Shown: piece after piece, positions 10,680 to 11,821 of the stretch
Numbering within the stretch: the stretch's first letter is position 1
Layout of the letters: every line of letters begins with the position of its first letter
NCBI GenBank assembly: GCA_026707815.1
Contig: JAPOWB010000009.1
Span: 70,752-134,751 of the forward strand
Direction: 5' to 3'
Source of the DNA: Candidatus Saccharimonadota bacterium
Lineage (GTDB): Bacteria > Patescibacteriota > Saccharimonadia > Saccharimonadales > VXPC01
DNA: 64,000 nt
The notes under the pieces: model-generated
Database searches by the model: none
Seen by the model: only the letters and a program-made list of their open reading frames with translations
What the model was told of the DNA's origin: nothing
Position numbers and translations under genes: made by a program

Positions 10680-11821
10680 ATATTGAGAAACTAATTAAAC
10701 AATTAGATCTTGATGGGATTAAATATCAAAAACTTGAAGATATTTGCGATTTAAAACAAGGAGATGGGCTTGTTAAAGCTGATATGTCAGACAATGATTC
10801 TTTTCCAGTAATAGGTGGTGGCAATAAACCTATGGGAAAATATAAATCTAGCAATTTCCCGAGCAAAACTGTCACCGTAGCGAGAGTTGGTTCAGCAGGT
10901 GCAGTGAATTGGAATGATAATCCCTTTTGGGGAACAGATTCATGTTTTGGATTAAATTCTAAACTACAACACGTAAGTACGAAGTATGTCTACTACTATC
11001 TTAAGGATAAGCAAGAAGATTTAGCAAAAAACATCAGACAAGGTCCCATACAAAGGATTAATAAATCATCATTAGCGCAATACAAAATCCCAATTCCGCC
11101 TCTTGAAATTCAACAGGAAATAGTCAATATGCTAGATAAATTTACTAAACTAGAAGCTGAACTAGAAGCTGAACTAGAAGCTAGGAAGAAGCAATATGAA
11201 TATTATCGTAATCAGCTCCTAACATTTGGTGAGAATGCCGAGGGGGGGGGTAAATGGTTCACCATAGGAGAGATTGGTAGAGTTGCCATGTGTAAACGGA
11301 TTTTCAAAAAGGAAACGTCAGCCATTGGTGGTATTCCTTTTTATAAAATTGGTACATTTGGCAAAGAGCCGGATGCATTCATTGACCGTAATTTATACGA
11401 GGAGTATAGGCGAAAATTCTCTTTCCCTAAAAAGGGCGATGTTCTTTTGTCGGCTTCTGGCACGATTGGCCGTACTGTTATTTACGATGGGAACCCAGCA
11501 TACTTTCAAGATTCCAATATAATTTGGATCGATAACGACGAACAGCTAGTTTCAAACAAATACCTATTTTATTACTACCAAATTGTCGAGTGGCGCACGG
11601 AAGGTGGTACAATTGACCGACTCTATGGAAGTCATTTGAAGAGAGTTAAAATCTTTGTTCCATCACAGATCATACAGAAACAAATTGTAAGTACACTTGA
11701 TAGATTCGACAGACTCATAAACGACATCTTTGAAGGTTTACCCGCTGAACTTGATGCTCGTCGCAAGCAGTATGAATATTATCGAGATAAATTATTAACA
11801 TTTGAGAAAGCGAAAGTTTAA
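10676..11821 (+). CDS. hsdS: Type I R-M specificity subunit HsdS (two target-recognition domains, type IC-like)
   Basis: Two TRDs, each followed by a conserved helix: ...[26 protein letters not shown] and ...[21 protein letters not shown]. TAATG overlap with hsdR. Confidence 0.9.
   Translation: [381 protein letters not shown]
11147..11182 (+). repeat. 3 x 12-bp tandem repeat (A/GAACTAGAAGCT) encoding (LEAE)n in the HsdS central conserved helix
   Basis: AAACTAGAAGCT GAACTAGAAGCT GAACTAGAAGCT read directly. It encodes [12 protein letters not shown]. Confidence 0.95.
11242..11250 (+). repeat. G9 homopolymer inside hsdS, at the junction between the first and second halves (currently in frame)
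   Basis: GAG GGG GGG GGT encodes EGGG. G10 gives an immediate TAA; G8 gives TAG after 5 codons. Confidence 0.95.

Follow-up and report, generated by a model that had tools for sequence, protein, structure and literature searches.

A poly-G tract at the hinge of hsdS in a type I restriction-modification operon of Saccharibacteria: a candidate switch between full-length and half-length specificity subunits

The window analysed here is a stretch of 64,000 nucleotides (34.8% GC) from a Candidatus Saccharimonadota bacterium (assembly GCA_026707815.1, contig JAPOWB010000009.1, positions 70,752 to 134,751). It carries a type I restriction-modification operon in which hsdM, a small gene that we call orf163, hsdS and hsdR follow one another on the + strand, so tightly packed that stop codons adjoin or overlap the next start (Table 1); the start of hsdR shares 1 nt with the stop of hsdS (TAATG, 11819-11823). 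An exact-sequence look-up found HsdS to be identical to MCY4089117.1, from a Candidatus Saccharibacteria metagenome-assembled genome (MAG). The subject of this work is a run of nine G residues (G9) in hsdS, at the hinge between the central conserved helix of the specificity subunit and the second of its two target recognition domains (TRD1 and TRD2). We think that this tract is probably a slipped-strand switch between full-length HsdS and a half-length form made of TRD1 plus the helix, the latter presumably active by analogy with known systems.

The sequence at 11240-11255 reads GAG GGG GGG GGT AAA TGG, and the G9 run at 11242-11250 is in frame in the hsdS open reading frame (ORF), as the original prediction had read it. 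We rebuilt hsdS in silico with tract lengths of 5 to 13 G. With G10 or G7, the TAA at 11251-11253 was read at once, giving products of 192 or 191 amino acids (aa) that end in ...ENAEGG(G), while G8 or G11 led through GTA AAT GGT TCA CCA TAG to products of 196 or 197 aa ending in ...GGVNGSP. G6 and G12 kept the reading frame and gave the full-length product. With one nucleotide more or less in the tract, translation thus ended in the linker, and TRD1 and the complete central helix remained. The earlier claims of an immediate stop at G10, of a stop five codons on at G8 and of TRD1-plus-helix products of about 190 aa in both cases were all borne out by these variants (192 and 196 aa, with helix 143-182 whole).

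Table 1. Features of the hsd operon and its left flank (positions in the window).
Feature	Positions	Strand	Description	Evidence
tRNA-Gln, anticodon TTG	8273-8346	+	left flank of the restriction-modification island	Rfam tRNA match, ARAGORN
hsdM	8613-10186	+	split into ORFs of 174 aa (8613-9137) and 332 aa (9188-10186)	Pfam HsdM_N, N6_Mtase; NCBIfam TIGR00497
G9 tract of hsdM	9068-9076	+	G9 = OFF; G10 or G7 = ON	in-silico tract variants
orf163	10188-10679	+	163 aa, between hsdM and hsdS	stop overlaps hsdS start (ATGA at 10676)
hsdS	10676-11821	+	381 aa at G9	two Pfam Methylase_S domains
HsdS central conserved helix	11102-11221	+	residues 143-182	AlphaFold2 model; EcoR124II alignment
12-bp tandem repeat AACTAGAAGCTG	11148-11182	+	2.9 copies, coding LEAE	Tandem Repeats Finder
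G9 tract at HsdS hinge	11242-11250	+	codes G190-G192	loop between central helix and TRD2
TAA	11251-11253	+	in-frame stop at G10 or G7	in-silico tract variants
TAG	11265-11267	+	in-frame stop at G8 or G11	realised in protein P0122
TRD2 and C-terminal conserved helices	11252-11818	+	residues 193-381, missing from out-of-frame products	AlphaFold2 secondary structure
hsdR	11821-14910	+	EcoR124-type	Pfam EcoR124_C, T1R_D3-like, SWI2_SNF2, HSDR_N

The 64-kb window contained two runs of more than six G or C. Both were G9 and both lay in the hsd operon, one in hsdM and one in hsdS. In 100 dinucleotide-preserving shuffles, the expected number of G9 runs per window was 0.06, and one shuffle of the 100 reached two. 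Because two such runs were found where 0.06 were expected, both of them in hsd genes, a chance occurrence of the hsdS tract is unlikely. Its length also places it in the class of mononucleotide tracts of at least nine that was used in a survey of REBASE (PMC7383803); in the NgoAV system of Neisseria gonorrhoeae, G7 is already long enough to slip.

To place the tract in the protein, we used an AlphaFold2 model of HsdS built on 35 homologues (mean predicted local distance difference test, pLDDT, 84.8). The modelled protein had a 40-residue helix (143-182), a loop (183-192) and a first TRD2 strand (193-196), so that the tract-coded glycines 190-192 are predicted to fall within the loop. The closest solved relative was EcoR124II HsdS, to whose EGEVEW linker the EGGGKW of the window aligned. 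The model and this alignment agreed in setting the tract after the conserved helix and before TRD2, the position that had been proposed from the sequence. The order of elements in HsdS was TRD1, the LEAE-coding 12-bp repeats, the conserved helix, poly-G and TRD2. The truncated products ended a few residues past LLTF, resembling the native C-terminus (...LLTFEKAKV). In addition, PADLOC profiles for half-size specificity subunits (207-208 positions), which are an established family, were matched end to end by residues 2-184 and by residues 71-188. TRD2 was common to many homologues (50-58% identity), and the homologue consensus at the linker was xxxxxxxVxW.

The 12-bp repeat at 11148-11182 (100% matches, score 70 in Tandem Repeats Finder) encodes LEAELEAE, which stood opposite TAELTAEL of EcoR124II in the alignment. 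EcoR124I and EcoR124II differ in spacer length according to how many such 4-aa repeats they have (work cited in PMC6158711), and by analogy the LEAE repeat is a probable determinant of spacer length here.

We also considered separate translation of the TRD2 half from an ATG at 11288, which opens a 177-aa ORF. We judged it unlikely to be functional because the nearest AGGAG is about 17 nt upstream and because the first TRD2 strand (KWFT, residues 193-196) is missing. The hsdS2 gene of the NgoAV system of Neisseria gonorrhoeae can be likened to it as a non-functional second-half ORF (PMC9577141).

Assemblies L002, L003 and L004 were 100% identical to the window and had G9 at both tracts. A Logan contig from ERR5004219 (L001, 1,682 bp) was aligned over 1,683 positions, and the only difference was a 1-nt gap at the hsdS tract, which makes it G8. 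The product called on this contig, P0122, has 196 aa and ends in GGVNGSP, as predicted for G8. Comparing tract lengths in related strains had been proposed as a check on the original prediction; the G8 of ERR5004219, in otherwise identical DNA, answers it and directly supports a toggle between full-length and half-length HsdS. ERR5002190 also carries the strain, and its contig stops before the tract.

A sister strain (GCA_026708245.1; L005-L008) had the operon at the same chromosomal place, with nucleotide identities of 95% for hsdM and 97.8% for hsdR. Its hsdS encoded unrelated TRDs and one LEAE unit more, so that the number of these repeats differs between strains; the two hsdS genes were 79% identical over only 208 bp, around the central region and including the tract. 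At the same hinge, the sister-strain hsdS had G9 (...LLTFDSSE-GGG-RWFTLGD), and there too G10 led to TAG at once and G8 to a stop five codons on. With a third strain (L089, GCA_026706615.1), the lineage contained five poly-G tracts (9068-9076 and 11242-11250 in the window; 3649-3657 and 5413-5421 in L005; 8229-8237 in L089), all of them in restriction-modification genes, namely hsdM, hsdS and a DpnII-associated type II methylase gene. No other G or C run longer than six occurred in the lineage sequences examined. The consensus of every tract was G9, the single G8 contig aside, and none was broken by a substitution. At G9, the three methylase genes were out of frame and both hsdS alleles in frame.

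The type II methylase belongs to a DpnII-like system which, in the sister strains, lies between a hydrolase gene and a cobW-like gene and consists of an N6_N4 methylase and an intact nuclease gene. Its G9 lies 12 codons past the ATG (L008 2588-2596, L089 8229-8237, L090 3435-3443, L091 273-281) and leaves the gene out of frame in four of four assemblies, G8 or G11 being needed to restore it. The NCBI record calls the methylase from an ATT 38 nt 3' of the tract. The window lacks this system and has just a short gap between genes there (6901-7181).

In hsdM, the G9 tract put the gene out of frame (...NRLGGGFLNV..., with a stop at 9135-9137), and G10 or G7 gave a protein of 524 or 523 aa in silico. 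The restored HsdM aligned without gaps to full-length HsdM proteins that were 72-75% identical, with GGGILERNQKL opposite GQTVAKRNERL. In the sister strain, an A-to-G change beside the tract shifted the in-frame lengths to G8 or G11. The consensus state of the operon is therefore one in which the methylase is off and the specificity subunit is full length. Between the two strains, the ratio of nonsynonymous to synonymous substitution rates (dN/dS) of frame-corrected hsdM was 0.098, compared with 0.168 in hsdR and 0.119 in the neighbouring cobW-like gene. By this comparison of sequences, purifying selection acts on hsdM and hsdR, and the operon is not decaying. Because of the dN/dS of 0.098, we take the OFF condition of hsdM as the current state of a second switch rather than as gene loss. 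We also looked for poly-G in the one homologue with a similar LGGGVLE in HsdM (P0146). No G run underlies these glycines, and the hsdM tract is therefore specific to the lineage. Separately, in L006, an ENA re-assembly of the sample from which the NCBI MAG L005 of the sister strain comes, hsdM had a 5-bp deletion (TAATC) around 4161 relative to L005 4157-4161, reflecting either polymorphism or a difference in how the reads were assembled.

The dN/dS values also bear on the idea that the operon is an inactivated remnant, its hsdM killed by the frameshift and both tracts drifting without function. The out-of-frame hsdM in all assemblies of two strains, the lack of the operon in the third strain and the extra 5-bp deletion in one sister-strain re-assembly would fit with this. 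In both strains, however, hsdM was intact over 524 codons apart from the tract, with the low ratio given above; hsdR (1,029 aa) was intact as well, with a ratio similar to that of its cobW-like neighbour, and the G9 tracts were conserved and uninterrupted by substitution. We consider this the most improbable of the explanations.

Another way to reconcile selection on hsdM with its frameshift is decoding of a fixed G9 at the level of RNA or the ribosome, through slippage of the polymerase in transcription or a programmed frameshift. HsdM in and out of frame, and HsdS of full and half length, would then be made side by side and continuously in every cell, a kind of epigenetic bet-hedging at the level of RNA and not of DNA in an episymbiont with a reduced genome, a prospect that we hold to be remote. 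Such decoding would agree with the facts that all five lineage tracts are exactly G9, that the three methyltransferase genes are out of frame and that hsdM is under purifying selection. It would also fit with the type II system of two strains, in which the DpnII-like nuclease gene is intact and the methylase gene next to it out of frame, an arrangement that is hard to understand if the methylase is truly OFF. Yet the corrections required differ in direction: hsdM of the first strain needs +1 nt, while that of the second, like the type II methylase, needs -1 or +2 nt. Predicted RNA folding 3' of the tract was unremarkable in hsdS (z = -0.23) and in the type II methylase gene (z = +0.40), and in hsdM the tract was followed by no more than a weak hairpin (-9 to -11 kcal/mol, z -1.7 to -2.2). 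Moreover, a G8 variant exists at the level of DNA, and the best-documented cases of transcriptional slippage in bacteria involve A/T runs. Overall, RNA-level decoding seems highly improbable to us.

To see whether the hinge tract occurs elsewhere, we fetched 80 loci with the frame-corrected HsdM; the homologues, 66-74% identical, came from Bacteroidales, Patescibacteria, Bacillota and others. In 8 of these loci, a G or C run of 8-13 stood directly after the ...YYRxxLLxF of hsdS (five with the strict motif and three with a looser one), and none had a run of that kind in hsdM. As read from the translations, L032, L055 and L057 were in frame with TRD2, while L014, L023 and L049 were truncated. 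In L055, the hinge run was poly-C, coding for proline; it is therefore the homopolymer that recurs and not a glycine linker. A rumen hsdS of the P0054 type had a G8 hinge in 10 of 10 contigs, these having been collected by an exact-protein look-up to which length variants are invisible.

All hallmarks of a type IC system (EcoR124 family) that can be judged from sequence are present, and on this footing we assign the operon to that type. HsdR matched Pfam EcoR124_C with E = 1.4e-61 and the EcoR124 HsdR of the PDB with E = 1e-263 and 881 bits (phmmer). Type IC genes are arranged in the order hsdM-hsdS-hsdR; the window has this order, with orf163 as an extra insert. EcoR124I and EcoR124II are thus related to the window system through a close HsdR homologue, and HsdS corresponds position by position in its central conserved region.

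The original prediction had drawn on a poly-G switch in the NgoAV system, and this precedent is indeed documented (PMC9577141, PMC7383803, PMC6789123). In N. gonorrhoeae, the poly-G lies at the end of hsdS1, and a change of one G fuses or separates the two halves (PMC9577141). The truncated HsdS, of 208 aa, is active and recognizes the quasi-palindrome GCAN8TGC, and the fused full-length protein recognizes the asymmetric site GCAN7STCA; gonococcal genomes have G6 to G9 at the tract (PMC9577141). Just upstream of the poly-G is a 12-bp repeat coding for the 4-aa unit LEAT, whose variation changes the spacer (PMC9577141, PMC6789123), and PacBio sequencing showed that the motif is set jointly by the poly-G and the count of LEAT repeats (PMC6789123). 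The window has the same elements in the same order, i.e. TRD1, 4-aa repeats, helix to LLTF, poly-G and TRD2, a likeness of architecture. The two systems differ in that NgoAV of strain FA1090 is commonly truncated (G7), whereas the window hsdS is commonly full length (G9), and in that the window hsdM has a G9 of its own, out of frame, while a tract in hsdM of NgoAV is not reported in the cited papers. The hosts differ too: that of NgoAV is a human pathogen, and that of the window belongs to the Saccharibacteria, within the candidate phyla radiation, and is represented by metagenomes only.

Truncation at or near this point has also been described in other systems. According to a citation in PMC7383803, truncated EcoDXXI HsdS acquires palindromic specificity (MacWilliams and Bickle 1996). 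Unlike the window, the type IC prototypes EcoR124 and EcoDXXI were truncated in the laboratory, and their hinge, EGEVEW, gives no sign of a homopolymer as judged from the protein. An engineered half-S of Staphylococcus aureus CC398-1, cut at the position considered here, formed a dimer with active methyltransferase and nuclease and a palindromic target (Bower et al. 2018, PMC6158711); this half-S is an artificial construct, and its source does not describe the system as type IC. In the REBASE survey (Atack et al., FASEB J 2019/2020, PMC7383803), 7.8% of hsdS genes had a repeat tract, always between the TRDs and predicted to toggle full-length and half-length HsdS, a frequency similar to that of our census (8 of 80). 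The survey also reports G12 tracts of Salmonella in two alleles differing in one TRD. It treats tracts in hsdM (2%) and in hsdS apart, and term searches of the paper found no pair in one operon and no mention of Saccharibacteria. Finally, type I specificity can also vary through recombinase-driven inverting hsdS shufflons, as in Streptococcus pneumoniae, which have been recorded in Saccharibacteria too (PMC7672463). These share phase-variable type I specificity with the window but work by site-specific inversion and not by homopolymer slippage.

These comparisons can be used to weigh the simplest alternative, which is that the tract is a plain Gly-Gly-Gly linker that slips occasionally, without being a maintained switch, and that the truncations are inactive loss-of-function alleles. 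Homologues do tolerate many sequences at this place, as the EGEVEW of EcoR124II illustrates, nearly all assemblies have the in-frame G9, and with hsdM off there would be no selection on specificity. Against this, GGG was the rarest glycine codon in the long ORFs of the window (11.9%), whose GC content is 34.8%, and the only other G run of seven or more was in hsdM. The tract was intact in an allele with diverged flanks and TRDs, and G or C runs of 8-13, poly-C included, recurred at the same position in unrelated phyla. Furthermore, a cut at exactly this point is active in NgoAV and in the engineered system (PMC9577141, PMC6158711). We therefore hold a plain linker to be unlikely.

Several observations weigh against our preferred reading, a maintained switch in hsdS. 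The length variation comes from one Logan contig, which is short (1,682 bp), at the level of assembly, and all other assemblies have G9, several of them re-using the same samples. An early stop after a frameshift is to be expected anyway in DNA of 35% GC. According to its authors, the half-S of CC398-1 was poorly stable (PMC6158711). The other predicted variant products were not found by exact look-up. This look-up covered 20 products, 10 from the strain of the window (hsdS and hsdM variants and the 177-aa ORF) and 10 from hsdS and hsdM of the second strain and the type II methylase of the second and third; the 177-aa TRD2 ORF of the G8 contig gave the only hit. The second-strain HsdS was missed although it is encoded on public contigs, and the negatives of the look-up therefore carry little weight. 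Contigs of the JGI metagenomes gave no match to a degenerate hinge pattern or to an hsdM-tract pattern, so that the lineage is not in that collection. More serious is the state of hsdM: all assemblies of the two strains had it at G9, with its frame lost. A search of 5.8 billion proteins turned up no in-frame HsdM of the lineage, and the best match was 75% identical. With hsdM in this state throughout, no methylase would be made, methylation is not expected in the sequenced populations, and the state of hsdS would be silent. Of the idea that the hsdM and hsdS tracts together give at least three epigenetic states, the G9 tract of hsdM thus proved real, while a phenotype for the hsdS state is lacking as long as hsdM is out of frame everywhere.

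The scarcity of length variants could also raise the suspicion of a sequencing or assembly artefact, with the G8 of the contig a mistake and the frameshift of hsdM due to miscalling of a G10. Runs of a single base are prone to error, the G8 comes from one short contig of probably low coverage, and several of the seemingly independent assemblies share read sets. Nevertheless, G9 was obtained from four assembly sources (NCBI MAG, ENA scaffold assembly, ENA k141_ contigs and Logan) and again in the second strain, which came from a different study. The G8 contig was otherwise free of errors over 1,683 bp; for it to be wrong, the same deletion would be needed in at least two reads, outnumbering those with the correct path. 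The corrections of hsdM differed as well (G10 or G7 in the first strain, G8 or G11 in the second), which a uniform miscall does not explain. We consider an artefact to be very unlikely.

If the hsdS tract is the switch that we propose, the G9 run would be a hotspot of slipped-strand mispairing at the hinge. G9, G6 and G12 would give full-length HsdS, with TRD1, central helix, TRD2 and C-terminal helix, and an asymmetric bipartite target. A G gained or lost would bring a stop within 0-5 codons in the linker and a product of 192 or 196 aa. Two such halves would pair via their helices, by analogy with HsdS1 of NgoAV, truncated EcoDXXI and the engineered half-S, and together with two HsdM they would form a methyltransferase whose target is a palindrome made from the half-site of TRD1. 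The hsdS switch would have a phenotype only when the hsdM tract is in frame (G10 or G7 in the window), which would allow three phenotypes: no methylation, the full-S motif and the half-S motif. Because the hsdS stop and the hsdR start overlap by 1 nt, a stop in hsdS 550 nt or more upstream would also uncouple translation of hsdR, and restriction might be lower in the half-S state. The assembly of the half-subunits, their activity and target, the rate of switching and a benefit in regulation or defence are what we infer from these analogies.

A switch of this kind is already known, common and well described, and it brings nothing new in principle to type I enzymology. What is new is, first, the host, since our literature search found only inverting hsdS loci for the candidate phyla radiation (PMC7672463); second, the presence in one operon of G tracts both in hsdM and at the hsdS hinge, along with a spacer repeat that varies; and third, the fact that the predicted half-length allele was seen directly, in a public assembly. 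If our reading is right, a lineage of Saccharibacteria with a tiny genome and dependence on a host varies its methylation specificity by the homopolymer trick of Neisseria, and does so on top of two further variable elements, a tract that turns hsdM on or off and a 12-bp repeat that changes the spacer. Repeat-driven phase-variable restriction-modification would then extend to the candidate phyla radiation, and the question whether such organisms hold restriction off in situ would have a concrete locus.

As to the surroundings of the operon, a scan for a promoter and a terminator gave nothing better than shuffled sequence, and neither a second copy of hsdS nor an invertase gene was found beside it. 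The whole type I operon makes up an island at about 8451-14964 (about 6.5 kb) beside tRNA-Gln. The third strain lacks this island and has 253 bp of unrelated sequence instead, between flanks that are 96-99% identical. The product of orf163 had no match in Pfam, PADLOC or NCBIfam. The operon of the sister strain, syntenic in other respects, does not contain this gene, which may be a passenger of the island or have an accessory role in it.

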